A stretch of 31,512 bases of DNA from a bacterium (GTDB lineage: Bacteria; Zhuqueibacterota; Zhuqueibacteria; Oceanimicrobiales; Oceanimicrobiaceae), in assembly GCA_046757025.1 (NCBI GenBank), contig JBHHXN010000050.1, positions 1 through 31,512 on the forward strand, given 5' to 3'. The notes below the pieces were generated by a model, which was not told where the DNA came from, searched no databases, and saw only the letters and a program-made list of their open reading frames with translations. Below are positions 2,665-23,608 of the stretch, piece after piece (positions within the stretch are counted from its first letter, which is position 1; each line of letters opens with the position of its first letter). Made by a program: the position numbers and the translations under genes.

Positions 2665-3201
2665 CTAATTGGGGTACCAGTAGGAGACCGTTCTTCCGCC
2701 TTCGGTGTCACAGGTACATACCCGGTCGCAGGTGCAAACGGTATCGCAATCACATTGTCTAGTGGGGACGGTATCGCAGGTGCAGACCGTATCGCAGGTA
2801 CAGACGGTTTCGGTGCCAGGATAAGTACGATTTGTGGCAACGCAGTCGCAAAGGCATGTGGCGCCCTTTGGTAAAGGCTGGTCACAGGCAATGGTTTTTA
2901 TGGCTTTGCCCATGCGGCGGTCGGTTTGAGAGATATTTTGGGTATCGTAGCGTCGGGTGCGTTTTGAGCTTGAGCAGCCCGTACTCATGTTGGCCACGGC
3001 GGCTCCGCCAGCCACCGCTGCCGCAGTGGTGGAAAGCATTTTTAAAAATGCCCGCCGGGATTGCGAATCGCTTTCACGCCGGTCAACTATTTTTAGAATT
3101 TTGGCTGGCTCGCGATTTTTTTCTCCTTTGGCCGGTTGGATGAGATGATCGGGTGCTTGGGCAGGGTGAGATCGATCTACTTTTTTTTGTTTATCAATCA
3201 T
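2665..3201 (-). CDS. Cys-rich putative rSAM-modified precursor protein A1 with twin-arginine signal
   Basis: 178 aa, GGAGG RBS. SRRAFLK followed by an Ala/Gly-rich stretch and GC. CLCDC plus five CxCD repeats, 15 Cys, C-terminal SYWYPN. Paralog of 3356..3832 and downstream of four rSAM genes. Confidence 0.85.
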   Translation of the reverse strand: MIDKQKKVDRSHPAQAPDHLIQPAKGEKNREPAKILKIVDRRESDSQSRRAFLKMLSTTAAAVAGGAAVANMSTGCSSSKRTRRYDTQNISQTDRRMGKAIKTIACDQPLPKGATCLCDCVATNRTYPGTETVCTCDTVCTCDTVPTRQCDCDTVCTCDRVCTCDTEGGRTVSYWYPN

Positions 3202-3355
3202 TGTTCCTCCTCACAAAGCAAACACAAAAAATGTTTATCCGCTCGTTTTTATTTTAACAACGTAATAAAGGCCAAATTTGGCAGCCAATATTTAAGAACC
3301 TGATAAACTGTGAGCCTGCACAAATTGCCATTCACCAGTGAATTACAAAACCGCT

Positions 3356-3832
3356 TTAGTTGGGGTACCAGTAACTTCCACCACCGCCACCTTCCGAATC
3401 GCAGGTACAAACCCGGTCGCAGGTACAAACGGTATTGCACGTGCACACCGTGTCACATCTGCATGTTTGATAGGAGTGGCTTGTGGCTACGCAATCACAT
3501 AAACAAACTGCCCCTGCAGGCAAAGGATCGCTACAAGGCATTGATTTCACAGAGCTCCACTGCGATTCTCTTTGCGTATCATACTCACTTTCCATCGGGT
3601 TCGAACAACCCTGGTTGATACCAGAAACCGCCGCGCCACCAGCTAATGCCGCTGCAGTGGTGGACAGCTTTTTCAAAAAGTCCCGACGCGTTTGCGAATC
3701 ACCCTCACTTCTATTAACAATATTTAGAATCTGAGCCGGTTCTTTCGCATTTTTGTCCTCTAATGGTTTGATAGTGTGATCCGGAGGCGACTGTTTTTGC
3801 TGTCGGTGCGATTTGTTGTGTTTTTTTGCCAT
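3356..3832 (-). CDS. Cys-rich putative rSAM-modified precursor protein A2 with twin-arginine signal
   Basis: The ORF track starts at 3844, but the ATG at 3832 (MAKK) has GGAGG 5 nt upstream. TRRDFLK followed by an Ala/Gly-rich stretch and GC. CLCDC plus four CxC(D/N) repeats, 13 Cys, C-terminal GGGGGSYWYPN. Confidence 0.85.
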   Translation of the reverse strand: MAKKHNKSHRQQKQSPPDHTIKPLEDKNAKEPAQILNIVNRSEGDSQTRRDFLKKLSTTAAALAGGAAVSGINQGCSNPMESEYDTQRESQWSSVKSMPCSDPLPAGAVCLCDCVATSHSYQTCRCDTVCTCNTVCTCDRVCTCDSEGGGGGSYWYPN

Positions 3833-3938
3833 TTTTTCCTCCATTATTTAAGGTGTTATGATAAAAACTTGTTCTGTTATTTCGAGGTGTACACTACTGC
3901 TGTAGTTCTTTCAGTAAGAACAGTTATCCTCAAGCGCA

Positions 3939-4031
3939 GTCTTTGCGAGCGATCCAACTGAGCGGGAGAGCGAAGCAATCTCCTTCCCCTGTATCTGGAG
4001 ATTGCATCGTCACTTCGCTCCTCGCAAAGAC
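3939..4031. repeat. Palindromic intergenic repeat element (REP/RPE-like)
   Basis: Terminal IR GTCTTTGCGAG...CTCGCAAAGAC with inner IR GCAATCTCC...GGAGATTGC. Related sequences at about 20305-20370 and 27221-27468. Confidence 0.8.
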
Positions 4032-4049
4032 GGGTTGTACTTAGAAACT

Positions 4050-5477
4050 TTATTCGGTTGTCAGGATCTTCTCCTTCCTGTTCTGGGTCGTTGAAGACAC
4101 CTGACGAGATCGAAACATTTCACTAAACCAGGCCCGGACCGCCAATTTATTCACCTGACACCGGAAGCCTCCCTCTCCTCGGTCATCTGTTTGTAAAAGA
4201 CACACATCCGGACAGTCCCTGGCACAATGGTAAATGTTCACGCAATCGAGGCAGCGCCGGGGGATGCGTGCCGCCTGCTGTCGCAACTGCGCCACACGTG
4301 GATGATTTAGTGCAAAGCCGGGGTCTGGTTGAAAAATTTCTTCCCCGATTTTCATGCTTGGTCCATTTGAGCTGCGGCTGTCCACGGTTAAAAAGCACAC
4401 CGTAGCCGTTCCATCCGGCGTAAGGTGCAGCACATTCCGAAACAGGTGACAGTATGGACCATGAATCTCCTCGGTTCGAACGCCCGACATGCTCAGGTTG
4501 GCGCCCATGGAATGCGCAGTCTTTTGTGCCTCCACAAAAGATTCGACAAACTCCCGGGCCGCTTGTTTCTGAAAACCTTCGGACCTGGAATGGTTCGTCA
4601 AGTAAACCGGCTCGAACCGAATCGTTTTCGCTTTGAATTCACAGCAAAATAACGCGACGATGTCTTTTTGCCGGTGAAAAGAATTCGGCGTGATCGTGGC
4701 TCGGATGGCGAACGGAACGCCTCTTTGAGCAAACAGATTCGCGGTTCGCTTCACAATTTGAAAGGTCGGTTGACCGTTCATCATAGGCCGCTGATCATTT
4801 TGAATATTTGCCGGACCATCGCACGAAAGACCGATGAGATTGAAATGGTCGGCAAGCCATTCGGCTCGGTTTTTCGGTAGAACGCCATGCGTGGCAATGT
4901 ATGCCCACCATTCAAGCCCATATTCGTGGGCGATTTTTCTCGTGCAGGCGACGATAGCTTGCAAGAGCTTCCAATGCAGCGTGGGTTCGCCGCCGCCGTG
5001 CAAAACAAGCGTAAAACGTTTGTTTTTTTTCTGACAGATTTTCGCCACCGCATGCGCGGCAGTTTGAACGGTCTGTTCGTTTATCACCGGCAGTTTTGAA
5101 TCCGCACCGTGGCGAATAGTATTCTGCGAAATACCCTGTTCCCCACAGCGGCCATTTTCATTTGCCGCAAAACAATAGCGGCAGCTCAAGTTACATTTAT
5201 TACTGAGATAGACGGTCAGGCATTCCGGCGTAAACGGCGCACTGGCCAGTTCCTGCCATCGCGATTTTGCTGCGGCAGCCGCCTCGATCAATTGAGACGC
5301 GGCCGCGGGTAATTCTAATCCTGCTGGCGCCGGCAGATGATTCAAATAGCCGGCGAATCGCTCTGCTTCCGCAGGGGAGAGCCATTGCGGACGCCCCGGG
5401 GCGTAGGCCAGATACCAGTATCTTTTTTTAATTAAAAAAATGGGCAGATCACGATGTAGCTTTTTGATTTTCATCAT
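4050..5477 (-). CDS. Radical SAM/SPASM-domain peptide maturase (rSAM-4)
   Basis: CNLSCRYC motif, HGGGEPTL, LSCDGP, and a C-terminal Cys cluster C..C..CLDC-x5-CARDC..C. The likely start is the ATG at 5477, overlapping the upstream TGA (ATGA); the ORF track extends to 5567. Confidence 0.9.
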   Translation of the reverse strand: MMKIKKLHRDLPIFLIKKRYWYLAYAPGRPQWLSPAEAERFAGYLNHLPAPAGLELPAAASQLIEAAAAAKSRWQELASAPFTPECLTVYLSNKCNLSCRYCFAANENGRCGEQGISQNTIRHGADSKLPVINEQTVQTAAHAVAKICQKKNKRFTLVLHGGGEPTLHWKLLQAIVACTRKIAHEYGLEWWAYIATHGVLPKNRAEWLADHFNLIGLSCDGPANIQNDQRPMMNGQPTFQIVKRTANLFAQRGVPFAIRATITPNSFHRQKDIVALFCCEFKAKTIRFEPVYLTNHSRSEGFQKQAAREFVESFVEAQKTAHSMGANLSMSGVRTEEIHGPYCHLFRNVLHLTPDGTATVCFLTVDSRSSNGPSMKIGEEIFQPDPGFALNHPRVAQLRQQAARIPRRCLDCVNIYHCARDCPDVCLLQTDDRGEGGFRCQVNKLAVRAWFSEMFRSRQVSSTTQNRKEKILTTE

Positions 5478-6865
5478 CCAACAATGGCGTTTAATGAAGT
5501 GTCTGCCGTGGCCGCTTTCAGCGTATGAAAGATTTGATCTTTGGTCAGCTCCTGGTTTATGTAACAACGGTCCGGCGCCTGCGGGTAGAGTTGTCCGCCT
5601 TCACGGGCTGATTTGGCAGGGCAATCGCCAGCACAGTGGTATTTGCAAAAACATTTTGAACAAAACGGTTTGTTTTGAACGGTTAATCCGTACAATTTTT
5701 TTCTTCGTTCCTCATCGATAACCATTTTTCTTGCGTTTCGGTCGAAATGGCCGTAAACAAACAGACTCGATAGCGGGTCGTCGAGGTCGAGTACTTCGAA
5801 GCAGCTCGTAATGATGGCGTTCGGGGTCACGGCGCAGGAGTTGCCAGCGGCTTCGCAGAAGATGTTTGACAAGACGCCAAAGCGGGCGCCCGAATAAGAA
5901 AGATTGCGGCCGAAGCGCATGGCAATCTTTCGAGCTTTTCTGAAACAGGTGACAAAATCCCGTGCTGCCGGCGATTTGAGATCGGATTCGATGGCGCGGC
6001 CTTGCGGAAACATCGGCTCGATTTTGATCTGCCTGGCTGCAAACTCTTCACAAAAAAACTGCACGATTTCCTCCAGTCGATGCACGCTTTTTGAGGTGAC
6101 CGTGGTGCGGATGCCGTACTGAAATCCGTTCCGATCAAAATCTTTGAGCGTTTCGAAAACGTGCATGAATGAGCCTCTGCCATTTGGAAGCGGTCGGTGC
6201 AGGTTCTGGATATCTTCGACGCCATCCACCGACACCGTGGCGCTGTCTATATTTTCAACAATCCAGCGGCGCTGTTTTGGATTCAAAATTCCCGCCAGGC
6301 CGATGGCGGTAGTGACTTTGATTTTATGCGGCGAGGTTATTTTGTGAGCATATTCCATGGTGTCTTTCAGCAGATTCCAGGCCGTGGCCACGTCTCCGCC
6401 TCCGTGAAAAATCACCGACAGGCGGCGGCTGCCAGCCTGACGCACATTCCGGCACACTTCATCCAGCACCCCGGTAACAACGTCAAACGGCATTCTGAGG
6501 ATATTTTTACCAGGAGTCAGCTCCCCACCCAGGGCATAACAATATTTGCAGCGCAGCGGACAATCGTTGGTGAGAAACAAGGTGACGCTTTGCGGTGCTA
6601 ACGGCGGTAGCGGGCGCGCGCGCCGCATTCGAGCCCGCTCCTTCCGGCTGTCAAACAACATGTCGATAAATCCTGAATTCACCCCGAGCTCGGCAATGGC
6701 AACTTTGTCGCCCTGTCGGGCACGGTAAAGCAGGTTGACGAAACGGGCGTTGGTTTCCAGCACGATCCCTTTGAGCGGTAAATAAAGGACATAGCGATCA
6801 TCCTTAGAAATACAGAAAACATCTTCAAACAACGACGCTGGTAATTTTTTATTTGCAGAATGCAT
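5474..6865 (-). CDS. Radical SAM/SPASM-domain peptide maturase (rSAM-3)
   Basis: CPLRCKYC, VSVDG, SPASM-type FC..TSC..CSKCFCKYHCAGDC..RC, GAGG RBS. The GGE motif appears as GGGDV. Confidence 0.9.
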   Translation of the reverse strand: MHSANKKLPASLFEDVFCISKDDRYVLYLPLKGIVLETNARFVNLLYRARQGDKVAIAELGVNSGFIDMLFDSRKERARMRRARPLPPLAPQSVTLFLTNDCPLRCKYCYALGGELTPGKNILRMPFDVVTGVLDEVCRNVRQAGSRRLSVIFHGGGDVATAWNLLKDTMEYAHKITSPHKIKVTTAIGLAGILNPKQRRWIVENIDSATVSVDGVEDIQNLHRPLPNGRGSFMHVFETLKDFDRNGFQYGIRTTVTSKSVHRLEEIVQFFCEEFAARQIKIEPMFPQGRAIESDLKSPAARDFVTCFRKARKIAMRFGRNLSYSGARFGVLSNIFCEAAGNSCAVTPNAIITSCFEVLDLDDPLSSLFVYGHFDRNARKMVIDEERRKKLYGLTVQNKPFCSKCFCKYHCAGDCPAKSAREGGQLYPQAPDRCYINQELTKDQIFHTLKAATADTSLNAIVG

Positions 6866-6879: not shown

Positions 6880-7887
6880 TTAATTGGCAGTCATTCTGAT
6901 GGTATTTTGTAATTCTCCGGTTGACACGTTAAATTCAATTCGTCGATAACGCCGCATGGAAGCTGCGAGACATCCGCCGCTGCATTTATTTTGTATCATC
7001 CAGGTGCATTCAGCACAGTACTGGTGGAGCCTCACTTGACGATCGTGGGCTTGTTTTCTCGCGTATTGTGTTCGCAGCCACACGGCATTGTGTTTTTCTG
7101 GTAAAGGCAAGTTCACGTGTTTGAACAAGGGATAGCAGGAAATCGTCTGGCCGTTTGCAAGAATATCGATAATTGGGCTGCACGTTAACCCGACCTGACG
7201 CGCACCCATACCCAAATACTCCATCGCGCCTTCCGGGAACATGCAGGGCACCCAGCCGCAGTCGAAATCGATGGAAACGCCTCGCTTCCGGGCACGCACA
7301 GCAAATTCCGTCGCGCGCAGGCCAACTTGCGGGTAATGGTTTGGATGCAGAAATTCATTCCGACTTTCGGGATCCGGGTGAGAAAGACCGAGCCGCACGC
7401 ATTTAATCAATCCGTATTCCTGAATCAGATCGAGGATGAAATCAAGCTCAATCCCCGGACTAAAAATATTGATCCCCGGCATGACACAATTTCCTAGTTG
7501 TTTGCACAGTTCACGCTGTCGGGCATGCTCGGATGGTTTGCCTTCCTGTGGATGAAGAAGATTCAACAGCAGTTTCAGTTTACGGCCTTTCATTTTTTTC
7601 AGTGCATGGAGCACTTTGTTCGGCACCAAGCCGCCGGTAAAAATCAACAGTCGCATCTGGCGCGCCAATGCAATCTGAATCATCTCCAGAAATTGCGGAT
7701 GCAGCGTGGGTTCGCCTCCTAGCAGGCGAACCTCATTTATGCCGGAGCGCTGCAAAAAATGTAAAGCGCGTTCATATTGTGTTAGCGACATGAAACTTTG
7801 CAAATCCGGCAACTTACCTAATTTCTCCATTGCAAAACAGTAAGAGCAGGCGCGATTACATTTCGATGTGATGGAAAGATTAGCCAT
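6880..7887 (-). CDS. Short radical SAM protein with C-terminal SPASM/twitch-type Cys cluster (rSAM-2)
   Basis: CNRACSYC at residue 10, LGGEPTLHP, DCGWVPC, C..C..CAEC-x7-CSGGC. No N-terminal extension; overlaps the upstream RRE gene by 8 nt. Confidence 0.9.
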   Translation of the reverse strand: MANLSITSKCNRACSYCFAMEKLGKLPDLQSFMSLTQYERALHFLQRSGINEVRLLGGEPTLHPQFLEMIQIALARQMRLLIFTGGLVPNKVLHALKKMKGRKLKLLLNLLHPQEGKPSEHARQRELCKQLGNCVMPGINIFSPGIELDFILDLIQEYGLIKCVRLGLSHPDPESRNEFLHPNHYPQVGLRATEFAVRARKRGVSIDFDCGWVPCMFPEGAMEYLGMGARQVGLTCSPIIDILANGQTISCYPLFKHVNLPLPEKHNAVWLRTQYARKQAHDRQVRLHQYCAECTWMIQNKCSGGCLAASMRRYRRIEFNVSTGELQNTIRMTAN

Positions 7888-8164
7888 GGTTTTCCTCCCT
7901 CACTAAAAATCCCATGGCAAACCACTCATGCAAAGACTCCAAAAGCAATCTTTCTGCGTCCGGCTCATCGAGTGTGGCTATGTGAGCCAGCATGCGCACC
8001 GCCACCGGCAGGCGGTAACCACGACTCACCAAGTCCCAAACCGCGGCTTGCGGGTATTCTATGTGCAAGTGTTTTTGCGAACCTTTCACAAGCAGCAATC
8101 CCCGTCTTTCGACAACCCACCGAACTTCGGGCGCCACCTTGAATTTCTCGGGTGAATTCGTCAT
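7880..8164 (-). CDS. Stand-alone PqqD-like RiPP recognition element (RRE)
   Basis: 94 aa with a beta-strand then helix pattern typical of PqqD (AAVWDLV...LAHIA...AERLLLESLHEWFAMGFL); located between rSAM genes. Confidence 0.7.
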   Translation of the reverse strand: MTNSPEKFKVAPEVRWVVERRGLLLVKGSQKHLHIEYPQAAVWDLVSRGYRLPVAVRMLAHIATLDEPDAERLLLESLHEWFAMGFLVREENHG

Positions 8165-8184: not shown

Positions 8185-9639
8185 TTAACCAAAAATGCCG
8201 AAACCCTCTGCAATTAAAGCGCCAGAGGGCTTTTGCTCATTTGAATTTGTGTGTGCGGCTTCTCTGAATGTCTGTCCCATGAGTGAAACGGCATCCCTGT
8301 CATGGAAAGCCAGTTTTCTCATGGCGGTTCGGTTTTGCAAAAGTTCCTGAATCAATTCTTCATAACCAAGTTCGCTCAACAGCAGGCAGGCCGTGATGAT
8401 GCGCGTTTGAATGCAGAAATCGTCGTATTCCAACGAACGATCTGGAAAACTGTGGTGGACATGGCAGCCGCCGGCGCACGTCCACTGGCAAAAACAATCT
8501 TCACACAGCGGCTTTGCCATCGGCAGTTGCCGCACTCGATCGAGGGCGGCGTAATCGATATGTCCTGTGCCGTCAGCGTTGAACTGCCCCACATCCATGT
8601 TCTGTCCGCGCTGCAACCAATCTTCCTGCGGCAAATAACATGCGCTGGCGCGACCGTCCGCCGACACAATCAAAGCGTCGGTTCCCACCGGACAAAAAGA
8701 GATGCGGCTTTTGGCGATGTCCACTGCGGCATTGATGACTTTGATTCCCAGCTTACGGCCAGTTTTGATCGCTCGCATAAAGTTTATCGCAAAGTCGTAC
8801 GGCCTGGGTGGGGTGAGTCCGGCTTTTGTGGAAAGCTCCCCCGGAGTAAGCGGTTCGAAATTCACCACCACCGGATTGAACTCCTGGTACATCCAGCGAA
8901 CGATGGCCTCCAAATCGTGCACCGAATCCTGCGTCACGCAAACGCGCAAACAAAGTTGGACGGGTTTAGTGCTCAAACTGCGAGCCGTTTCCACCACGAG
9001 ATCAAAAGTACCCTGGTTATTCATGGCGGGTCGGTTACGGTTATGCGTATTTTTGAAACCGTCCAGCGACAGCACGATGGCATCGAAATAATCGCCAATA
9101 AAGACGCTTCGGCTTTTACTAAAAACACCGTTGCTGGAAACATCAAAAAAGGGGATCAGGTCGTTCTGGGCGCAGACGTAGCGTGTGCGGTGTACCACGA
9201 TGTCAACCAGCTCGGGGGCAGTGAAGGGCTCCCCACCAAAGAAATGTACACGAAAATATTTTTTACCGCTTTTCTTGAGCCTCTCAGCCATCCAGTCGAT
9301 GGCCGTTATGGCAATCCGAGGATCCATGTTTTCCCGCACCGAGGTGGGTCCGCCGAAATTGCAATAAACGCAATTTATGTTGCATCCTCTCGTGGTGATG
9401 ATGCCGAGAAATGACGGACAGATTTCACCTTTCAAAGGCGAGGGTTTTCGAAGTGGTTTCGTTGCCAGATCACGATATAAATTTGCCAGCTCGGCCGCAC
9501 CCTCAGAAAAATGACCCTGACGAAACTCTGCGGCAGCCGTATTGTTGAGCAGGGCGAAAAGGTCGCAGAGGGGTGCAAAGAGCAGCCACTTGTCCATTAT
9601 CGGAATTAAAAACACCCCATTTTGAGAAGATTTCAGCAT
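8185..9639 (-). CDS. Radical SAM/SPASM-domain peptide maturase (rSAM-1)
   Basis: CNINCVYC, FFGGEP, SSNG, LSLDG, SPASM FCPVG..SAC..CEDCFCQWTCAGGC..FC. Confidence 0.92.
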   Translation of the reverse strand: MLKSSQNGVFLIPIMDKWLLFAPLCDLFALLNNTAAAEFRQGHFSEGAAELANLYRDLATKPLRKPSPLKGEICPSFLGIITTRGCNINCVYCNFGGPTSVRENMDPRIAITAIDWMAERLKKSGKKYFRVHFFGGEPFTAPELVDIVVHRTRYVCAQNDLIPFFDVSSNGVFSKSRSVFIGDYFDAIVLSLDGFKNTHNRNRPAMNNQGTFDLVVETARSLSTKPVQLCLRVCVTQDSVHDLEAIVRWMYQEFNPVVVNFEPLTPGELSTKAGLTPPRPYDFAINFMRAIKTGRKLGIKVINAAVDIAKSRISFCPVGTDALIVSADGRASACYLPQEDWLQRGQNMDVGQFNADGTGHIDYAALDRVRQLPMAKPLCEDCFCQWTCAGGCHVHHSFPDRSLEYDDFCIQTRIITACLLLSELGYEELIQELLQNRTAMRKLAFHDRDAVSLMGQTFREAAHTNSNEQKPSGALIAEGFGIFG

Positions 9640-9650: not shown

Positions 9651-10118
9651 TTATTCTAATTCTTCAATTTCATTCGCGGGAATACAAATGCGATGTTGAA
9701 TTAGTTTGAAAAACACATTATTAACCTCCCTCCGGGCATTCTCGATATCGATTTGGAAATGGTTAGCCACCTCCTGCGCGGTATTTTCAATAGAAACGGT
9801 TCCTCCAAATCGCGCCAGAATAAACTCGATCACCTCGCTGGCCTCAAACAGATTCACTTCCGTGCCTTTCTCAAGGTGCCGGGCTTTGATCGCGGTGGGC
9901 TCCACGATCAAATTGTATTCCGCCAAGATGGCAGGTTGAATTTTTGCAATAACTTTGTCAGGAAAATTGAAAATCTCTGAAAGTTTCCTCTGGCGAACAC
10001 CCCGCATTTCATCAAACAGAGATGTGGCTTCGGCAAGAAAGGAACGAAAAAATCGACGACGATTGACTTTTTTTTCGATGAGTGACATGGCGCAAGGTGT
10101 TTTTAATCGGGTGCTCAC
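9651..10118 (-). CDS. Protein with C-terminal PqqD/RRE-like domain and N-terminal RRxFF motif
   Basis: The C-terminal EFILARFGGTVSIENTAQEVANHFQIDIENARREVNNVFFKLIQHRIC resembles PqqD helices; the N-terminus has NRRRFFR. The start is either GTG 10118 or ATG 10088 (MSLIEKK). Confidence 0.65.
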   Translation of the reverse strand: MSTRLKTPCAMSLIEKKVNRRRFFRSFLAEATSLFDEMRGVRQRKLSEIFNFPDKVIAKIQPAILAEYNLIVEPTAIKARHLEKGTEVNLFEASEVIEFILARFGGTVSIENTAQEVANHFQIDIENARREVNNVFFKLIQHRICIPANEIEELE

Positions 10119-11771: not shown

Positions 11772-12761
11772 TCAAGGAGACACCTCCGTTCCCAAACTTA
11801 GTTTCTCCGCATTCACTAGCGCCTGACTGGCAGCAGCTAAATCCTGTACTGCGTTGCCCACGGATTTAAAAAAAGTGATCTCCGTGTCAGAGGTACGGCC
11901 CGGTTTTGTGCCAGCCGCGATTTCGCCGATTTCCGCATAAACATGATCGGTGTCGATAAGTCCCGCCTGCAGCGGCTGCAGCAAATCGCCGGCTTCGCGC
12001 AAACACGACGGCCGGTGATCGACGATGACTTTCGCCTGCTGCACGGTTTCCACCGGAATCTCGGCCATGTCCGGGCGGTAGGCGCCGATGCCGTTGATGT
12101 GTACGCCTGGCCGCAAATGTTGATGCCAGAAAACCGGCGTCGTGGCGGTGGTTGCGGTACAGATTATATCCGCATGCTTCAGCAAATCCAACTCATTTGG
12201 CACTTCAATTGTGATCGCTAATTTTTTCTGCATCTCCCTGGCAAATCTCACCGCCTTTGAGGGATCGACGTCGAAGACGAAAGCCCTCTCGATGGTTCTG
12301 ACTGCGCACACGGCTTCGAGCTGCGCGCGACCCTGTACGCCGGCGCCAAAGATGGCGGCAACCCGGGCGTCCGAACGTGCCAGCAGATCCGTGGCCAGTC
12401 CGGAGGCGGCACCGGTGCGCAGGGCCGTCAGATATTCGCCATCCATCAATGCCAGCGGTTGGCCGGTGACGGAATCCAAAACCACTATCATGGCATGAAT
12501 CAGCGGCAGCCCATTGGGCGGGTTTTCATCCATGATGGACACAATTTTGACGCCAATCTTGCGATTTTCTTCAAGGTAGGCTGGCATGAACAACACCCGG
12601 CCTTTTTCCTTTGGCACCTCCAGGTTCATCCGAACCGGCACCACGGCCAGCCCGGACGAAAGCTGCACAAAAGCCTCTTTCATCAGGGCGATGGCCTCTT
12701 TCAGGGACAGCGCTTTTTTGACGTCTTCCCTGGAAAGTACGCGAATGGTTTGATTTGTCAT
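11772..12761 (-). CDS. Ornithine cyclodeaminase/mu-crystallin family protein, probable delta1-pyrroline-2-carboxylate reductase
   Basis: [35 protein letters not shown] and [10 protein letters not shown] motifs; clustered with a trans-3-hydroxyproline dehydratase. Confidence 0.85.
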
Positions 12762-12809
12762 TGAACTTTCCTTAAAGAAAAGGGGTGCAGAGAATAAAAT
12801 GATTCACAA

Positions 12810-13320
12810 CGCGACAAAGCCGCAAACAGCAATTGAATCACAGAATTCCAGACGCAGCCTTTTGACACAATAAATAATTAAACCACGGATTGACCCGGAT
12901 ACGCACGGATGAATGCCTATTGTGAAAAATAATAGACGAATTCATAAAGCTAAAAATTTTAAATGTACTTACAACCACATTTATTGAAACTGTGTTTTAT
13001 CCGTTCTACAAACCTGCAATGTTGTGTTTTTTTTACTAAGTTTCTGAGTGGACTCTGGTTGCCAAATATCTGTACAGCGTGAAAGCCATTAACGCAGAGG
13101 CGCGAAGGACGCAGAGGTTCGCAATGATTTTTGATTTTACTTGGATTATTCACAAATCAGGATTTTACGCTCAAAATCGAAAAACTGAGTACGGAGCATT
13201 TTTAAAATAGTCCTGTTTTTTATTTAAATTATTTCTTTTTTCTCTGCGGTCCTCTGCGCCATCGGAGTTTTATGCGTTTAACATTCTGGTCGCGGCTTTA
13301 CAGCGCGGTGCAAATCCGTG
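12810..13320. repeat. Nested palindromic repeat elements in a long intergenic region
   Basis: AAAGCCGCAAACAG (about 12816) pairs with CTGGTCGCGGCTTT (13286). CACGGAT-like repeats at 12881-12910 pair with ATCCGTG at 13314. ACGCAGAG repeats at 13091-13116 pair with CTCTGCG repeats at 13242-13258. Confidence 0.6.
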
Positions 13321-13451
13321 TCTAAAATATTTTAAATAGTTAGTTAGTCAAAACATTGTCATAAAACAATAAACTGCAGATTAGTATTACAGAATTTGGA
13401 TAAAATGTTTTTACTCTTTGGCGACTTCATCCTCATATTTATGATGTTGAA

Positions 13452-14840
13452 TTAGCTTGATGCTAATTCCTCGACCTCGGCAACGGTTTTTGGAATAGGC
13501 TTTCCCAGGATTCGACATCCTGTGTCCGTTACCAGCACGTCCTCTTCGATGCGAATGCCGCCAAACTCTCGGTACTTTTCCACTTCCTCATAATTAATGA
13601 AATCTGTAAATTTCTTTTCCGCCCGCCATCTGTCCATCAATTGCGGAATAAAATAGAGCCCCGGCTCCACGGTGATGACATAGCCCGGCTGGAGTCGTTT
13701 ACCCAGCCGCAAAGAGCGCAGTCCGAACTGCTCGCTGCGTTGGGTTTCCTCGTCGTATCCCACCAGGTCTTCGCCCAGCGCCTCCATGTCGTGCACATCC
13801 AGTCCCATCATGTGCCCGAGCCCGCACTGAAAAAACAGCGCATGCGCCCCCGCTGCCACCGCCTCTTTGACATTGCCTTTCATCAGTTGGTTATCTTTTA
13901 GTCCCTGTGTAAGATGTTCACAAGCCAACAGATGAATGTCTTTGAATTTGGCACCGGGCTTCACCGCGTCGATGGCAAACTGCAGCGCATTGTAAACAAT
14001 TTGATACATGGTTTTCTGCAGATCGGTGAATTGACCGGAGACCGGTATAGTGCGCGTGATGTCGCTGGCATAGTGCCAAGCCGAAGCCGCGCCGCAATCG
14101 TTCACCACCATATCGCCGGCATGCATGGTGTTGCCGTGGTAGTGATTGTGCAAGGTTTCCCCGTGTACGGAAAAGATAATGGGAAATGCCAGCTCACCGC
14201 CCCGGGCATGCGCCAGACCCGCCATCATACCCGCGATCTCTCGTTCGATCATGCCTGGCTGCGTTTGGCGCATGGCGGTGGTGTGCATTTCATAACTGAT
14301 GTCGAGAGCGGCATCGATTTGAGTAATCTCCTCCGACGATTTGACCGAACGCTGATCGACAACGATTTCGACCAGCTCGTGCGATACGGAATGATCGACT
14401 TGCGTGGGAGTCATGCCGGAAATTTGACTGAGTAAAATTAAATTTTCTGCGCGATACAACGGTAAAAAATGTATTTTTCTTCCTTTTTTAAGGGCCTTTT
14501 GTAATTCGATCTCTAACTGCTCGAACGGCGCGCTTTCTGCCACGCCCACTTTTTCGCTTTCTTCGCGCAAAAGCGGCTGCGGACCCGTCCAGACGATCTC
14601 TTCCACGGTCGCATCGTTGCCAAAAAGAACCTGCCGGTTTTCGTCTACATCCATCACCGCGGCGAGTCCCGGCGAATCCAACCCCCAGTAGTACAAGAAG
14701 GAGCTATCCTGCCGAAACGGATAAGCGTTGTCGCGGTAGTTTATAGGGCTTTCCTGGTTTCCCAAAAAGATCAGAATTCCCGAATCAATTTGTCGCATTA
14801 GATTCTGTCTTCGTTCGCTGTAAATTTTAGCATCAAACAT
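13452..14840 (-). CDS. Xaa-Pro aminopeptidase/prolidase (M24B)
   Basis: FRQDSSFLYYWG, LHNH, DCGA..YASDITRT, GHMMGLDVHD, TVEPGLYF, GIRIEED; GGAGG RBS. Confidence 0.92.
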   Translation of the reverse strand: MFDAKIYSERRQNLMRQIDSGILIFLGNQESPINYRDNAYPFRQDSSFLYYWGLDSPGLAAVMDVDENRQVLFGNDATVEEIVWTGPQPLLREESEKVGVAESAPFEQLEIELQKALKKGRKIHFLPLYRAENLILLSQISGMTPTQVDHSVSHELVEIVVDQRSVKSSEEITQIDAALDISYEMHTTAMRQTQPGMIEREIAGMMAGLAHARGGELAFPIIFSVHGETLHNHYHGNTMHAGDMVVNDCGAASAWHYASDITRTIPVSGQFTDLQKTMYQIVYNALQFAIDAVKPGAKFKDIHLLACEHLTQGLKDNQLMKGNVKEAVAAGAHALFFQCGLGHMMGLDVHDMEALGEDLVGYDEETQRSEQFGLRSLRLGKRLQPGYVITVEPGLYFIPQLMDRWRAEKKFTDFINYEEVEKYREFGGIRIEEDVLVTDTGCRILGKPIPKTVAEVEELASS

Positions 14841-14881
14841 GTCGCCTCCGGTTGTCGGTTATTATTGGATTGATTTATACA

Positions 14882-15670
14882 TTAAGCTAGACCGCCGCCG
14901 TCCACCACCAGATGGGCGCCGGTGACCCAACTGGACAATTTACTGGCAAAGAAAAGAACCGCATTGGCCACGTCCTCCGGCTGCCCCACCCGATTGAGCG
15001 GCCGTTTCGCCGCCTCCCGCAAAAACTCATTTTGGTCGATGCCCAGCTGCCGGGCTTCGTTGTGCAGCAATTCGGTTTCCACATCCCCGGGACAAACACA
15101 GTTCACGCGAATTTGGTGTTTACCGTGATCGATGGCCATGGCACGCGTCAGATTGAGCACCCCGCCTTTGGCCGCACAATAGGCAGCAGCCTTAGCGCCG
15201 CCTTTTAACGACCAGCCCGAACCCGTGTTGATGATGCTGCCGCCGCCGTTTTTGATCATGTGTGGAATAATCTGTTTTGATAGCAGATAGATTGATTTCA
15301 GGTCGGTATCCACCACCCGATCCCATTCTTCTTCGGTCAATTCAAGGACGTTATTGCGACGGATAACGCCGGCGTTGTTGAACAGAATGTCTATTTTGTT
15401 GAAGCGGTGAAGGATCTCATCCGTGACTTTTTCACAGTCCGTTTTTGAAATAACATCGCAGAGAAAAAAGTGCGCCCGGCCGCCAACATCTTGAATCTCT
15501 TTTGCAACCTGTTCGCCAGAGCTGACGTTGACGTCTAACAAAGCCACCGTAGCGGCCAATTCTGCAAATCGTATGGCGGTAGCGCGACCAATTCCGGAAG
15601 CGGCGCCAGTCACAACGGCTACTTTGTCTTCTAATGAAATGAGCTGCGTCGCTCGGGTTTGGGTGTTCAT
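14882..15670 (-). CDS. Short-chain dehydrogenase/reductase (SDR)
   Basis: TGAASGIG, NNAG, YCAAK catalytic motif, IRVNCVCPG. Confidence 0.92.
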   Translation of the reverse strand: MNTQTRATQLISLEDKVAVVTGAASGIGRATAIRFAELAATVALLDVNVSSGEQVAKEIQDVGGRAHFFLCDVISKTDCEKVTDEILHRFNKIDILFNNAGVIRRNNVLELTEEEWDRVVDTDLKSIYLLSKQIIPHMIKNGGGSIINTGSGWSLKGGAKAAAYCAAKGGVLNLTRAMAIDHGKHQIRVNCVCPGDVETELLHNEARQLGIDQNEFLREAAKRPLNRVGQPEDVANAVLFFASKLSSWVTGAHLVVDGGGLA

Positions 15671-15709
15671 ATAATTTACTCCAAAAGTTAGTCAGAGTTC
15701 GTAATCCGC

Positions 15710-17035
15710 TCAAAAAATTTTGGCCAGCGCTTTTTCAACAGCCGCCAACGTCACGGCCACATCTTCTGCGGAGTGCGCCAGACTGACGATAGAATGCAAA
15801 ACAGCCGAAGGTGTGGTGTACACCCCCTGCTCAAACAAGGCCAGCACCAGACGCTGGTATTTCGCCCGGTCCACAAACTGGCAGAACTCCCGGTAATCGC
15901 GGATGGCGGGCTTTTCAGTAAACATAATTTGCAGCATGGGCCCGACGTTTTGCACGATAGCCGGAATTTTCTTTTCCTTGAATAGGTTGCGCAAACCGTT
16001 ACAAAGTTTATCTGCGATCTGCCAGATATGTTTGAACGCCGCCCCCTGGTTTTCATTTAACACCTGTAAACAAGCGCGGGTAGCGTGCAGGCCGATTCGT
16101 GAAGCGTTCTGCGTACCGTAGTGCAGCACCCCGCCCCATGTCAGGGCTTGCATAATTTCAGCTCGACCAACCAAACAGGCCACCGGCAAGCCGCATCCCA
16201 GGGCTTTGCCAAAAGTCGAAATGTCCGGCTGCAGATGGTAATATTCCTGGCAGCCGCCGGCCGCCACGCGAAAGCCGGTAACGGTTTCATCCAGAATGAA
16301 AAGAATATTGTTAGAACGAGCCAGCTCCTGTAACGCTTGCAGATAACCCGGGTCGGGTGGAATGACGCCCATGTTGGCCATGACGCCTTCGGTGATGATG
16401 GCCGCGATCTGGCCGCGATCGGTTTCTATGGCCCGCTCTACCGCGGACAGATCGTTCCAGGGCAGGACGATGGTGTCTGCCAACGCATGCCGATTCAAAC
16501 CTGAGCTGTCCGCGATTTTGATGGGATCATGAGGATGCCCCAGAGAAACCACGGGCTGTGGATTGGAGTTGACCAGAAAGTCATCATACCAGCCGTGGTA
16601 GTGTCCTTCAAATTTGATAAATTGTGGTTTGCCGGTGTATCCTCGGGCCAGGCGAATGGCGGCCATGGCGGCTTCGGTGCCCGTGTTTGCAAATCGCACC
16701 CGTTCGGCGCCAGGGATCATCTTTTGTATCAATTCCGCCACTTCGATTTCGATTTCGGTGGCCGCCGCAAAGTGCGCGCCGCTGATAGCCGCTGCGCTCA
16801 AGGCTTGCGCCACCCGCGGATGAGCGTGTCCCAGGGGCAGCGCACCGTAAGCCATCATCCAGTCGAGGTAACGATTGCCATCGACGTCGTAAATGTGCGC
16901 GCCTTCCCCGCGTTCGATGAACAGCGGATACTCGCCGTAATTCACCGGCCCCCTGGAAGCCGAGCTGCCGCCTTCGATCATGACTTTGGTGGCGCGTTTA
17001 AACAGGTTTTTGGATGTTTGGGTTAAATAGGTCAT
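15710..17035 (-). CDS. Class III PLP-dependent aminotransferase (glutamate-1-semialdehyde aminomutase-like)
   Basis: DVDGNRYLD, LGHAHP, NTGTEA, FEGHYHG, ILDETVTGFR, FGKALG. The likely start is ATG 17035; the ORF track uses TTG 17059. Confidence 0.88.
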   Translation of the reverse strand: MTYLTQTSKNLFKRATKVMIEGGSSASRGPVNYGEYPLFIERGEGAHIYDVDGNRYLDWMMAYGALPLGHAHPRVAQALSAAAISGAHFAAATEIEIEVAELIQKMIPGAERVRFANTGTEAAMAAIRLARGYTGKPQFIKFEGHYHGWYDDFLVNSNPQPVVSLGHPHDPIKIADSSGLNRHALADTIVLPWNDLSAVERAIETDRGQIAAIITEGVMANMGVIPPDPGYLQALQELARSNNILFILDETVTGFRVAAGGCQEYYHLQPDISTFGKALGCGLPVACLVGRAEIMQALTWGGVLHYGTQNASRIGLHATRACLQVLNENQGAAFKHIWQIADKLCNGLRNLFKEKKIPAIVQNVGPMLQIMFTEKPAIRDYREFCQFVDRAKYQRLVLALFEQGVYTTPSAVLHSIVSLAHSAEDVAVTLAAVEKALAKIF

Positions 17036-17100
17036 TGGATATTCCAGTTTGAAGTGCAACGAACTGAGAAAATAAATTTATCAAAGCAGTCATTTTTTAC

Positions 17101-17137
17101 TTGATCGATACGTATGTTATCATTATATTTTTACGTA
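17101..17137 (+). promoter_or_regulatory. Sigma70 promoter of the TA operon with two TACGTA palindromes (putative autoregulatory operator)
   Basis: TTGATC (17101-06), 17-nt spacer, TATATT (17124-29). TACGTA at 17109-14 and 17132-37. AGGAGG RBS follows. Confidence 0.6.
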
Positions 17138-17155
17138 TAAATATTTAAGGAGGTA

Positions 17156-17407
17156 ATGATGAATACAAAACTCACGTTAAAACTCGATAAACAAGCCATT
17201 GAGAGCGCAAAAGAATATGCACAGAAAACCAATCAAAGTCTATCTATTTTGGTTCAAAATTTTTTTAATGTCATAGCTGCAAAAGTTGATAATCAAAATG
17301 ATGATATTTCACCACTTGTGCAAGAATTATCTGGCATCATTCATTTAGAAAATAACATTGATCTTAAAGAAGAGTATCATAAACATATCAACGAGAAATA
17401 TTCATAG
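17156..17407 (+). CDS. Antitoxin, ribbon-helix-helix type (DUF6364-like)
   Basis: MNTKLTLKLD..IESAKEYA....SLS.LV pattern; 1-nt overlap with the downstream PIN gene. Confidence 0.8.
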   Translation: MMNTKLTLKLDKQAIESAKEYAQKTNQSLSILVQNFFNVIAAKVDNQNDDISPLVQELSGIIHLENNIDLKEEYHKHINEKYS

Positions 17408-17832
17408 TGCTTAAAATCTTTATTGATTCAGACATAATATTGGATCTACTCGCAAAACGAAATCCACACTATGATTATGCAGCCAGGTTATTTACGTTAG
17501 TCGAGAAAAAGCAAATAAAAGCGTACACTTCACCTCTGGTTTTTGCCAATATTCACTACTTGCTCCGTAAATTAACCTCAAATGAACAAGCGAAACAAAA
17601 CCTACGCAAACTCAGGACTCTGGTTAAAATACTTTCAATAGATAAAAAAGTAATCGATTTATCTTTATTTTCAGAATTCAAAGATTTTGAAGACGCAATT
17701 CAATATCATACTGCAAACAATAACGGTTTAAAATTTTTGATCACCCGTAATAAATCGGATTATAAAAATACTAAAATCACTGTGTGCACGGCTGAGGAAT
17801 GTTTAAAAATGTTTGAAACTTTAAAACAATAG
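17407..17832 (+). CDS. PIN-domain (VapC-like) toxin
   Basis: IFIDSDIILD, DFEDAIQY and LITRNKSDY PIN motifs. Confidence 0.88.
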   Translation: MLKIFIDSDIILDLLAKRNPHYDYAARLFTLVEKKQIKAYTSPLVFANIHYLLRKLTSNEQAKQNLRKLRTLVKILSIDKKVIDLSLFSEFKDFEDAIQYHTANNNGLKFLITRNKSDYKNTKITVCTAEECLKMFETLKQ

Positions 17833-17934
17833 CGATTCAATTTTTTGACTAAATCCAACAATTTCGATTTTGTTAACCTAACACCCAAATGTCCTCAAAA
17901 TGCATGAATTCTATTTGCAAATCATTCAATACCT

Positions 17935-19071
17935 CTAAACTTCCACCCCATACCGTTTCGCATACTCTTTAAAACGTTGAATCAATTCCTGTGCGCGGGT
18001 TTCGGCCTCATCCGGATGAAGCCGTGGACAGTCATACCCCAGGGTGTCGCGCAGAATAGCCGCGGATTCTGCACAAAAAACCACCGTGCCGTCTGCCTCG
18101 ATGCGTTCGACACCATCAAAGCGATGCGAGTGTTCATTGATTGAAATCGCCGTCTCCAGCGGCAAATCGGGAATTTCCGCCACTTCTACTCCGCGGGAGC
18201 TCACCGTCACCGGGTACCCGCCCGGCAAGCCAGCCGGCGCGGGCGTATGCAGAAAAACATCCTCCTCTGAAAACAGCGCCTGAATCAATCTGACGCTGGT
18301 GGCAGCCGTGAGGAAATGGATGGCCCGTCCCGGCGTCAGCGGATACGGTGCAAACAGCCATTTTTCCGCTTCGATTTCGGCGGTGACGTCTTGGCCGCGG
18401 TGCGCAACCCGCAAGAAAAACGGCGGTTTTTTCACAGCTGGTAGCAGCGGCGTTTCACGAAACGTGTATTTTAGCAAAGCATGGTGCGCCACCAGATGAA
18501 CTCGCACTTCGTTCAGCGAAGCGTGCAATCGTTTTGCCGCCAGCCAGTGAATTTTGGGGACCACCTCTGCCACGTTGCCCACGCCGCAGGTAGGCGCCAG
18601 ATTCAGGCGTTTCAAAATTTGATTGATGACGTCGGGATAGGGCGCCGTTAAGACAAAACCCTGGTAATCTGCCCGCCGCACAGCTTCCATGAGTTTCCTG
18701 GTCAGAGTTAAATGTACGGGCAGCCAGACGCCAAATCCCGCCTGATCGAACAAAGCGCTTTGCACCGGCGGCAGCCGGTAGGGAGTCCACCAGCTTTGCA
18801 GTGTCGCCGCACTGAAAATGAGATCGGGATTTTCATTTTGGATGATTTCCGCGGTGCGCTCAGTCTGGTGCAAATCTAGAAGAATGAAACGAATATCGGT
18901 GGAAAATCCCTGGGCGATGGCACCAGATCGCGCTAAATTACAGCGCGCGGCGCCGGCTTTTTCATTGCGGCTGCCAACCACGATGACGCCGATGTGCGCG
19001 CTCCGAGCCAGAAATTCCAGCAATACACTGCCCAGATCTCCCAGTCCGATGAGCATTATTTTGGGGTTCAT
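17935..19071 (-). CDS. NAD(P)-binding Rossmann-fold oxidoreductase (saccharopine dehydrogenase-like), function unknown
   Basis: N-terminal IMLIGLGDLG (GxGxxG); YPDVIN, CGVGN and PAGLPGGYP conserved-looking motifs. Confidence 0.7.
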   Translation of the reverse strand: MNPKIMLIGLGDLGSVLLEFLARSAHIGVIVVGSRNEKAGAARCNLARSGAIAQGFSTDIRFILLDLHQTERTAEIIQNENPDLIFSAATLQSWWTPYRLPPVQSALFDQAGFGVWLPVHLTLTRKLMEAVRRADYQGFVLTAPYPDVINQILKRLNLAPTCGVGNVAEVVPKIHWLAAKRLHASLNEVRVHLVAHHALLKYTFRETPLLPAVKKPPFFLRVAHRGQDVTAEIEAEKWLFAPYPLTPGRAIHFLTAATSVRLIQALFSEEDVFLHTPAPAGLPGGYPVTVSSRGVEVAEIPDLPLETAISINEHSHRFDGVERIEADGTVVFCAESAAILRDTLGYDCPRLHPDEAETRAQELIQRFKEYAKRYGVEV

Positions 19072-19195
19072 TTTTTCCTGGCCCGGACCAGCCGGGGCTT
19101 TATTTAAGTGAAAAGGTTCCTATTTCGCTGTTGGCGGTTGGTTTTTAGCTGTTGGCTTTGAGCTTATTGAGTACCGTCCTTAAAAATTGACAAAT

Positions 19196-20254
19196 TCAAC
19201 GCAGGATAAAACCCTCTTTTAAAGGATCCTCCGGGTCGATCCAGAATTCATTTTTCCCGGTGATAAATGCCCGGCCTTCCACTTCCGGTACCACCGCCGT
19301 ATGCGGACCAAACTGCGTGGTAGCCGCCACTTTGCCAATGAATCTGCTGCCGATAATGCTCTCGATCACAACGGCCTCATCCAGTCCGATTTCACCTCTT
19401 GCGTAGTGTATGGCCATGCGGCCGCTGATGCCCGTGCCCGTGGGCGAGCGATCGACTTCGCCTTCGGCAAAAATGCACACATTGCGGCTGTGGGCCTGCG
19501 GGTTCGTTGGCGCCCCGATGAAAATAGCACCGTAAAGAAAATTCAGATCCGCTTCAAAAGGATGCCCGATTTCGCGGCTCTGTATGACCGCGCGTTTGAT
19601 AGCCATGCCTTTTTCAATCAGCTCCTGGTAATTTGCAGGTGTTAGTGAAATGCCGATGTCTTCAGCCTGTACGTAAGCATAAAACGCCCCGCCAAACGCC
19701 AGGTCGTAAGATACGGAACCCAGACCTGCCACTTCCACCTGCTCATCGAGTGCTAACACAAAGGACGGTACGTTTTGAAAATAGACGCTCTGCACCCGCT
19801 GGTTTTTTATGCGGGCATGCGCCGTGACCAGGCCCGCTGGGGTGTCTATTTTCACCTGCGTGAGCGGGCGGGACATGGGCAACATGCCGGTTTCCAGCAC
19901 CACCGTGGTTACGCCGATGATGCCATGCCCGCACATGGTGCTGAATCCTTCGTTGTGGAAAAACAAAACGCCAAAGTCGGCTTTCGCTGTCACAGCCGGT
20001 GTGAGCAAACAGCCGTACATGTCGGCGTGGCCGCGCGGCTCCCACATCAGCGCGGTACGTAAATGGTCGTGGTTCTCTTTGGCCTGACGTCTCCGTTCAA
20101 TAATGGTTCTGCCCGGCAATTCCGGAAAACCGCTGACGATCACCCGCAACGGCTCGCCTTCGGTGTGGGCGTCCACGGTGACGATTTTCTGCCAATTTTC
20201 TGGAGGCGACCAGTTTTTAATTTTATTCATGCTTTTTTGAAAATCGTTTTTCAT
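19196..20254 (-). CDS. lhpH: Proline racemase family, Cys/Thr type: trans-3-hydroxy-L-proline dehydratase
   Basis: DAHTEGEP, EPRGH, MCGHG and DRSPTGTG (Thr replaces the second catalytic Cys). Start is probably ATG 20254 or 20230; the track start at 20320 lies within a repeat. Confidence 0.85.
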   Translation of the reverse strand: MKNDFQKSMNKIKNWSPPENWQKIVTVDAHTEGEPLRVIVSGFPELPGRTIIERRRQAKENHDHLRTALMWEPRGHADMYGCLLTPAVTAKADFGVLFFHNEGFSTMCGHGIIGVTTVVLETGMLPMSRPLTQVKIDTPAGLVTAHARIKNQRVQSVYFQNVPSFVLALDEQVEVAGLGSVSYDLAFGGAFYAYVQAEDIGISLTPANYQELIEKGMAIKRAVIQSREIGHPFEADLNFLYGAIFIGAPTNPQAHSRNVCIFAEGEVDRSPTGTGISGRMAIHYARGEIGLDEAVVIESIIGSRFIGKVAATTQFGPHTAVVPEVEGRAFITGKNEFWIDPEDPLKEGFILR

Positions 20255-20304
20255 AGTCACGATTGCGATAACTTGGAGCTGTCCAAATTGATCTAATGAG
20301 TGGA

Positions 20305-20370
20305 AAGCGAAGAATCCCAACTAAGGGTGTATGTCAGGAGATTTTTCGTCGCTTTGCTCCTCAGAATGAC
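20305..20370. repeat. Partial palindromic repeat element of the 3939-4031 family
   Basis: AAGCGAAGAATCCC...GGAGATTTTTCGTCGCTTTGCTCCTCAGAATGAC. Confidence 0.6.
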
Positions 20371-20426
20371 ATCAAAAAGTTTCTTTTTGTAAAGCCACAG
20401 AGTTCGATTCAATGAAATGCATTATA

Positions 20427-21179: not shown

Positions 21180-21196
21180 CGTTTACTCTGTGTCTT

Positions 21197-23281: not shown

Positions 23282-23371
23282 GTAACCCCGTCGATTTGAA
23301 TTGAATTCATCTCGCATGTTATTTTTCCTGTGAAAATGATAAACAAACATTATTAAGGGTGTTCACGCTTT

Positions 23372-23552: not shown

Positions 23553-23608
23553 TCAGCATGTATTTCTGCACATCTTCCACGCTCGGTCAGGAATCGCACC
23601 ATTCTGGC

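Follow-up and report, generated by a model that had tools for sequence, protein, structure and literature searches.

Repeat-tailed Tat substrates and a radical SAM cassette in a Zhuqueibacterota genome: a candidate system for thioether stapling of exported proteins

Thioether stapling of whole proteins by radical S-adenosylmethionine (SAM) enzymes has been shown for very few cases (QhpC and CrpA). In the CrpA/CrpC system of Methanococcus voltae (TIGR04463), CrpC installs thioethers on a 28.8-kDa protein at CAVD, CAGM, CPLV and PCAGD motifs, and the CrpA repeats contain the motif C-X-X-Q/D (PMC13692751). Here we describe a locus from a bacterium of the phylum Zhuqueibacterota, contained in a stretch of 31,512 nucleotides (positions 1 to 31,512 of contig JBHHXN010000050.1, assembly GCA_046757025.1, referred to below as the window). 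It encodes two paralogous proteins, A1 and A2, both ending in tandem CxC[DN]x[VE] hexapeptides and a YWYPN tip. Upstream of A2 and A1, on the same (minus) strand, lies a cassette in the order RREb, rS1, RREa, rS2, rS3, rS4, in which rS1 to rS4 are radical SAM enzymes, and RREa and RREb are stand-alone recognition elements (RREs) of the kind known for RiPPs, peptides synthesized on ribosomes and modified after translation. The reading that we favour by analogy with CrpC, at a probability of roughly 0.6, is that rS3 makes thioethers from the repeat cysteines to the residue three positions downstream (i+3).

The likeness to CrpA/CrpC extends to a substrate the size of a protein, whose leader is N-terminal and whose CxxD/Q-bearing Cys repeats are C-terminal, to paralogous substrates with a common leader and to a seven-Cys SPASM enzyme. 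Unlike the window system, CrpA has a 17-residue repeat and is paired with one enzyme containing a predicted fused RRE, and neither a twin-arginine translocation (Tat) signal nor an aromatic tip is reported for it. The TIGR04463 cut-off of 525 bits is missed by rS1 (45.6) and rS4 (31.3), and this model is not among the 25 best matches of rS3. The other protein-level case, QhpC/QhpD of quinohemoprotein amine dehydrogenase, involves a quinone cofactor and partner subunits that have no counterpart at this locus. In that system a radical SAM enzyme forms Cys-Asp and Cys-Glu thioethers in a lasting protein with the help of an RRE and a leader, which is its likeness to the present one, whereas its three cross-links are fixed and it has no tandem repeat (PMC13692751); rS3 scores 48.6 of 453 bits against TIGR03906.

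The best sequence matches of rS3 and rS1 are found in the ranthipeptide systems PapA/PapB and SCIFF CteA/CteB (5WGG), which likewise combine a SPASM domain, a Cys/Asp-rich core and the logic of leader plus RRE. Unlike the window system, they use one enzyme on short peptides with a native CX3D spacing, and they lack a Tat signal as well as any cargo domain or second core. Of the hallmarks of that class, RRE and leader are represented here by two stand-alone RREs and a conserved leader, and the seven-Cys SPASM domain with an open auxiliary cluster I (AuxI) site by rS3, with the caveat that two extra cysteines occur in 68% of its group. The CXXX-repeat system (TIGR04114/TIGR04115) also has a Cys repeat of variable copy number, with a SPASM enzyme as its neighbour, and a cluster bearing its name was a sub-threshold lead (0.87) in ESM Atlas; its repeat has a period of 4 with one Cys compared with 6 and two in A1 and A2, which have no TIGR04114 match (E up to 0.1), and rS3 reaches 51.7 of 350 bits against TIGR04115. 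Iterative SPASM modification of a short repeated motif with a conserved Val/Ile is described for TvgB/TigE, which, unlike the window system, have a GYW motif and Cys-less repeats (PMC10878394). The dynobactin/triceptide models DynA, YhhB, GrrM and AmcB are not passed either, the best score being 66.6 of 450 bits (DynA). Overall, the system appears undescribed: judged from its sequences, it would work like CrpA/CrpC and QhpC/QhpD yet it fails the family models of each named system. No description of it was found in the open-access literature (subscription journals, figures and bioRxiv supplements being outside the search), and the motif was not found in the supplements of PMC10288494 (one file, partial), PMC12710340, PMC13692751 and PMC9062424. 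New here are the proposed division of labour between rS3 and the remaining enzymes, the i+3 acceptor argument and a second locus in the same genome.

The assignment of rS3 to the repeats comes from a comparison of gene content. A search of metagenome loci with the A1 alignment found nothing; a tip-blind DNA pattern for the repeat alone then succeeded, adding 79 metagenome and two viral loci to 34 GTDB loci. The resulting 115 loci were merged to 93, of which 28 have at least 4 kb on either side of the substrate. As accessory enzymes we counted, at a threshold of at least 100 bits, rS1, rS2, rS4, a sixth radical SAM enzyme, a HemN-like enzyme and a U32-like protein. They were present in 21 of the 23 loci with an aromatic tip versus none of the five repeat-only loci (Fisher p 2e-4, not corrected for kinship), and a looser cut gave 38/40 versus 0/6. 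The rS3 enzyme was found in 22 of the 23 aromatic-tip loci and in four of the five repeat-only loci, the fifth being phage-like. In a FastTree phylogeny, the repeat-only enzymes nest inside the rS3 group, where five belong to a single subclade and those of L032 and L034 branch elsewhere, making about three lineages. Since tip-less loci keep only the rS3 type, the simplest reading, and a likely one, assigns the repeats to rS3 and the tip to the other cassette enzymes.

In the window, rS3 (5474..6865) is a seven-Cys radical SAM/SPASM enzyme, the sole cassette enzyme kept for tip-less repeat substrates and the likely repeat cross-linker. The remaining three enzymes track the tip: rS4 (4050..5567), a radical SAM/SPASM enzyme with an uncertain start codon, whose orthologues occur only with aromatic-tip substrates; rS2 (6880..7887), a radical SAM enzyme with a Cys-rich C-terminal domain and no N-terminal extension; and rS1 (8185..9639), a seven-Cys radical SAM/SPASM enzyme. 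A tree of 77 sequences (a quick tree, as are all trees used here) separates rS1, rS3 and rS4 into three orthologue groups. RREa (7880..8164) overlaps the start of rS2, and its profile matches the lasso RREs TfuB1 (6JX3, E 1e-4) and TbiB1 (5V1U); six of 16 RREa members match PqqD (E up to 0.05). RREb (9651..10118) has an RRE fold in its structure model (pLDDT 85.8; best Foldseek matches TfuB1 and TbiB1, E 2e-4 to 8e-4) and an N-terminal RRxFF helix. This helix is Tat-motif-like without a hydrophobic region, its Arg is kept in 15 of 16 members, and in locus L018 the RRE part is duplicated behind one such helix. Across the 34 GTDB loci (many on short contigs), cassette radical SAM genes were found in 32, with rS4 in 24, rS1 in 22, rS2 in 21 and an rS3-type enzyme in 26 plus one weak match; a HemN/ChuW-like radical SAM enzyme occurs in 18, the sixth radical SAM enzyme in 15 and the U32-like protein in 10. 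Such genes also occur in 32 of 36 metagenome or viral loci of at least 5 kb. The U32-like gene, which the four other positive genomes have, was not found in this genome by the one query made.

Regarding the chemistry, Cys337/355/415 and Cys402/405/411/434 of rS3 are invariant (31/31), which is the seven-Cys pattern with an open AuxI site that is described for CrpC (PMC13692751). The best PDB match of rS3, a weak one, is 5WGG, the structure of CteB according to PMC10878394. In 895 inner repeat units, position 4 is D in 421, N in 307, H in 79, V in 39, E in 26 and Q in 17 (together 889), with a single Gly; position 6 is V in 670 and I in 77 (together 747), with three Gly; and positions 2 and 5 are more variable than these two. 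The string Cys1-x-Cys3-[DN]4 is found in 728 of the 895. In the final unit D/N is retained in 134 of 183 cases, no Cys following within seven residues, so that the donor Cys would lie upstream of the acceptor; a link from Asn/Asp to a downstream Cys (NxxC type) is less likely for the same reason. Both cysteines of CxC[DN]xV have a CrpA-type residue at i+3, namely Asp/Asn4 for Cys1 and Val6 for Cys3. Combined with the motifs of CrpC, the position statistics and the last-unit pattern favour Asp/Asn4 as the acceptor for Cys1 and, less surely, Val6 for Cys3. Other pairings are possible and the spacing is not new, since PapB tolerates Cys-Xn-Asp with n = 0-6 in vitro (PMC9413430). The earlier note on this DNA had set the CxCD spacing apart from known ones and proposed a new ring topology. 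The former view is not borne out, i+3 being the C-X-X-Q/D spacing of CrpA (PMC13692751); of the latter, only an interlocked pair of rings in each unit would be new.

Several observations weigh against this assignment or limit it. The best NCBIfam match of rS3, NF047865 (PapB), lies below its cut-off at 102.3 of 340 bits (rS1 scores 112.7 against the same model), and the SCIFF model TIGR03974 yields 91.8 of 425 bits. The active-site-proximal residues of rS3, assigned by motif adjacency, are Y-H-[STL]-S-[YF]-E, compared with F-F-T-S-H-Q given for CteB (PMC10288494); they differ at positions 2, 5 and 6, so rS3 is not a typical ranthisynthase. The His at position 2 and the Glu at position 6 are invariant in rS3 (31/31), and position 2 of rS1 is Phe in 22/22. 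The additional Cys272 and Cys407, present in 68% of rS3 sequences, could close the AuxI site, and a fused RRE was not detected at the N-terminus of rS3. As for gene content, there are few repeat-only loci and they are not independent in phylogeny, no accessory genes lie near the tip-bearing substrates of L029 and L089, radical SAM genes of other families are present as well in L052 and L124, and the phage-like loci L057, L122 and L080 have similar repeats and no rS3 orthologue. The family sets were found with repeat-containing queries, so that frequencies and position statistics are biased to the consensus. The Cys count is even in 24 of 30 short members and odd in six, and an even count would also fit disulfides. 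In addition, the lipobox residue at -3 is non-canonical in both A1 (STGC) and A2 (NQGC).

The even counts also agree with an explanation that we consider unlikely, in which the repeats stay unmodified, their CxC doublets binding metal (in a metallothionein-like manner or as one doublet per chain of a trimeric fibre) or forming a disulfide ladder after export, and the enzymes act only at the tip or at some other place. Metal binding by CxC motifs is common, phage fibres bind metal through HxH doublets, and phage-like proteins with related repeats occur without rS3. In L065 (7892-11350) the repeats of two WD40 proteins run directly, in place of the tip, into a Peptidase_S74 domain (E 1.2e-14), an intramolecular chaperone domain of trimeric fibre proteins, and a lone rS3 adjoins. 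However, CxC pairs give even counts under any model, neither A1 nor A2 matches metallothionein or any other Pfam family, and tip-less repeat substrates retain both their leader and rS3 (four of the five loci compared, and also L032, L052, L061 and L115). Slightly less probable still would be another chemistry of rS3 on the repeats: one Cys linked per unit, sactionine (alpha-carbon) links, or oxidation of Val/Asp (cyclopropane, C-C link or desaturation) with free thiols. The proximal residues unlike those of CteB, with their invariant His and Glu, speak for it, as does the T-V within the repeat, given that TvgB/TigE cyclopropanate Val/Ile in repeated TVGG and TIGSVS (PMC10878394). Yet none of the four window enzymes has the GYW motif that defines cyclopropyl synthases (PMC10878394), and 95 of 96 orthologues lack it too (one occurrence, position not checked), and the scarcity of Gly at positions 4 and 6 fits, weakly, side-chain rather than alpha-carbon links.

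Two further explanations concern the fate of the tail. Its tip has W-x-x-N and H-x-W spacings, and dynobactin has Trp-Asn and His-Tyr links (PMC10288494); A1 and A2 might be ordinary RiPP precursors from which the modified C-terminal peptide is cleaved to act as a small free antibiotic or signal, its tip being cyclised as in dynobactin or a triceptide. Weak matches to DynA and cyclophane-forming families, the existence of precursors without a Tat signal (C209, L001, L002, L030 and L033) and the patchy distribution (5 of 167 genomes of the phylum) are in line with such a product. It appears improbable nonetheless, considering that the cyclophane-family scores lie far under the cut-offs (66.6 of 450 for DynA), that no peptidase, ABC exporter or immunity family recurs among open reading frames (ORFs) common to at least three of the 34 GTDB loci (28 ORFs annotated), that the Cys ending the signal is invariant in 27/27 short members, and that 61/61 longer relatives fuse the tail to folded domains of 300-600 aa, which would make its release costly. 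We give very little credence to conversion of the tail into a protein-derived redox cofactor, as in thioether-stapled QhpC or the methylamine dehydrogenase light chain, partnered with a beta-propeller. Propellers are indeed the cargo of most long members, the methylamine dehydrogenase light chain was a sub-threshold ESM Atlas lead (0.86), and 10 of the 34 GTDB loci have a U32-like protein, U32 proteins being O2-independent hydroxylases. On the other hand, 23 of 194 proteins have Tyr or Phe in place of the tip Trp, a propeller is missing from A1 and A2 while some relatives carry SH3, Ig or PKD domains as cargo instead, the same set of shared ORFs shows no recurrent family of cytochromes or electron acceptors, the U32-like gene was not found here (one query), and a PDB sequence search with the substrate family profile gave no match.

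The proteins on which rS3 would act, A1 (2665..3201, 178 aa) and A2 (3356..3844, 162 aa or 158 aa from the second Met), are 59% identical and share a layout of leader, Tat/lipoprotein signal, Cys block, repeats (five in A1, four in A2), Gly/Ser linker and C-terminal YWYPN tip (2668..2682 and 3359..3373, respectively), the latter a likely second modification site. In short members of the family, 45-50 residues precede the twin arginines and include two motifs, PD[HD]x[IL]KP and ExPx[IV][YF]x[IV]. The second of these, a putative RRE recognition sequence, reads EPAKILKIV in A1 (3085..3111) and EPAQILNIV in A2 (3716..3742). The twin-arginine signals that follow (2974..3060 in A1, 3605..3691 in A2) end in a conserved lipoprotein-type Cys (Cys76 and Cys80), which stands after the hydrophobic stretch in every one of the 27 short members. 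Both proteins pass the Tat signal model TIGR01409 (21.6 and 26.9 bits, cut-off 16.7) and are predicted Tat lipoproteins; beyond this model, nothing in NCBIfam or Pfam, metallothionein included, scored above cut-off. A structure model of A1 built on a 27-row alignment (pLDDT 53.5, predicted template modelling score 0.24) is too poor for judging the fold, and an ESM Atlas search with the substrate returned leads only, all sub-threshold (<0.9). A relation to the hexapeptide of left-handed beta-helices or to insect antifreeze repeats was discarded, given the mismatch in register and the lack of a match to either Pfam family. A1 also contains N-x-S/T sequons.

All nine units reported in the earlier note are present as written in these minus-strand ORFs: CTCDTV, CTCDTV, a PTRQ insert, CDCDTV, CTCDRV and CTCDTE in A1 (2701..2802), and CRCDTV, CTCNTV, CTCDRV and CTCDSE in A2 (3392..3463). 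The upper ends that it gave for the arrays were right, while the lower ends fell 6 nt short. The C-x-x-PLP-x-GA-x-CLCDCVAT block that it noticed ahead of both arrays (2833..2886 in A1, 3482..3535 in A2) does exist in the two proteins but is a subfamily feature, found in only 38 of 220 non-redundant relatives. Its suggestion of selection at the protein level holds: a comparison of the nine 18-nt units gives proportions of synonymous and nonsynonymous differences of pS = 0.86 and pN = 0.17 (uncorrected, with synonymous sites near saturation), and the repeats of A1 and A2 are 88% identical in protein with pN 0.06, versus 43% and 0.37 for the leader. The low copy number recovered by TRF at period 18 (2.2 only) is expected if the repeat is maintained at the protein level. 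In six frames of the whole 5.96-Mb genome, at least two units per reading frame occur in just three frames, those of A1 and A2 and that of a C209 precursor (on another contig), each of which adjoins an enzyme of the rS3 type, so that the repeats are not a matter of chance. The idea that they form the core needs to be widened: they are very probably a radical SAM substrate, but the YWYPN tip is a second core, and many relatives bear them as the tail of a folded 300-600 aa protein and not as the core of a short cleaved peptide.

The wider family was assembled from 24 short relatives (one of them A2 itself), 61 longer ones and the 34 GTDB loci, to which we added a database set of 276 representatives at 50% identity (E ≤0.001). 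Among the best 150 of these 276, at least two repeats were present in 111 of 121 newly found proteins. After removal of near-duplicates there are at least 220 repeat proteins, 194 of 220 with an aromatic tip of consensus Y-[WY]-[YHRF]-P-[NCSTD]. The repeat is present in 3 to 15 copies per protein, with a dominant distance of 6 residues between CxC starts. All 61 longer relatives have the shared N-terminal leader and signal region and the Cys-rich tail, and between them carry mostly WD40 propellers, else NBR1-type Ig or PKD domains, with SH3 domains in Chloroflexota members. An RR or RK motif is present in 191 of the 204 database proteins that contain the repeat and whose start is intact; a loose pattern detects a lipobox-like Cys in 151 of these 191, and 182 of the 204 have the leader Pro motif, the Pro lying 16 residues ahead of RR in 62 of 95 scored. 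The literal lasso RRE recognition motif YxxP (PMC12710340) occurs in nine of the 182. The GTDB loci span Bacteroidota, Chloroflexota, Acidobacteriota, Desulfobacterales, Myxococcales, KSB1 and others; within the phylum only 5 of 167 genomes are positive, and none of 20 other genomes of the same family.

Some members have variant ends: P0123, P0124, P0129, P0132, P0133, P0135 and P0138 end in SYWY without the final PN and have a literal YxxP in the leader, and further members terminate in CTCNVVY[SYR]. Phage-like contigs (L057:7634-19708, L122:7723-17648, L069:254-982 and L080:671-3557) have genes for proteins that consist of CxCxxVCxC repeats or end in them; two of these contigs, L057 and L122, match the IMG/VR records L132 and L131, respectively. 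Radical SAM genes other than rS3 are present in L057, L122 and L080, several in a row in the former two.

A possible course of events can be proposed from these data. The RREs would bind the leader motif ExPx[IV][YF] ahead of the Tat signal, and rS3, acting like CrpC, would join repeat cysteines to a side-chain carbon three residues downstream through non-alpha thioethers. If both cysteines were linked, each unit would hold two interlocked rings, and the array would become a rigid, protease-resistant stalk of variable length. The gene-loss pattern suggests that rS1, rS2 and rS4, joined where present by the HemN-like enzyme, the sixth radical SAM enzyme and the U32-like protein, rework the YWYPN tip. 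Tat export, lipidation and cleavage by signal peptidase II would then remove the leader, making a dedicated protease or ABC exporter unnecessary, and leave a membrane-anchored lipoprotein whose stalk might display the modified tip in the envelope. Such display is suggested by the cargo domains, which are binding or scaffold folds; that the tip serves there as a metal- or receptor-binding ligand is the weakest step and remains doubtful. More generally, and still tentatively, the family may represent a tailoring system in which a portable two-part address (an RRE leader before a Tat signal and a C-terminal tag) has been grafted on unrelated exported proteins. One radical SAM enzyme would convert the repeats of the tag into interlocked thioether rings arranged as a ladder, and as many as five further Fe-S radical enzymes and an O2-independent hydroxylase would make a new aromatic cross-linked ligand or cofactor of the last five residues, on the envelope of anaerobes in many phyla.

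If true, the family would add a widespread case of whole-protein stapling to the few described. It would also be a candidate tool for rigidifying recombinant proteins, because its export route is already built in and its tag is one that nature shifts among cargo domains. The gene-loss pattern divides the puzzle of six enzymes into two, one of rS3 with the repeats and one of the remaining enzymes with a tip of five residues, and four to six uncharacterised radical SAM families working on one pentapeptide would probably yield new chemistry. The window is a good starting place, as A1 and A2 are among the smallest substrates.

The second locus of this genome, on contig C209 (L035:1772-8215), encodes a repeat precursor that ends in GHYWHPN and has a leader but no Tat signal, together with two rS3-type enzymes. 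The HemN-like and sixth radical SAM enzymes, missing from the window, are fused there in one ORF. A small protein of this locus (3570-4010) has its own RR motif and hydrophobic stretch, and a signal-less precursor is paired with a small RR protein likewise in L001, L002, L030 and L033. The recurrence of this pairing suggests that precursors without a signal may leave through Tat with the small protein as their carrier.

Other elements next to the substrates are less regular. Downstream of A1, the same strand encodes a glycosyltransferase of family GT2 and a multi-pass membrane protein of 513 aa without a Pfam match (70-1611, 1731-2444). The glycosyltransferase genes were rejected as core parts (0 matches among the 34 GTDB loci and one among 81 further loci), and the membrane protein follows a substrate elsewhere only in L073, the contig of the closest relative. 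A small signal-peptide protein with an outer-membrane-barrel-like pattern and no Pfam assignment stands after a short substrate in three of the 34 GTDB loci (L006:10546-11091, L018:8054-8608 and L023:10066-10788), with matches in 11 of the 81 further loci. Between rS4 and A2 (3900-4040), GC-rich inverted repeats (~3934-4030) resemble a small repetitive element. On the other side of the cassette, a cluster unrelated to the present subject (11772-29929) is presumably, from its translations, one of hydroxyproline/proline catabolism. We take its genes to include two proline racemase-like genes, a D-amino acid oxidase-like gene, a DapA-like gene, an aldehyde dehydrogenase, an ornithine cyclodeaminase-like gene and a GntR regulator, with what we assume to be an antitoxin/PIN pair at 17156-17832.

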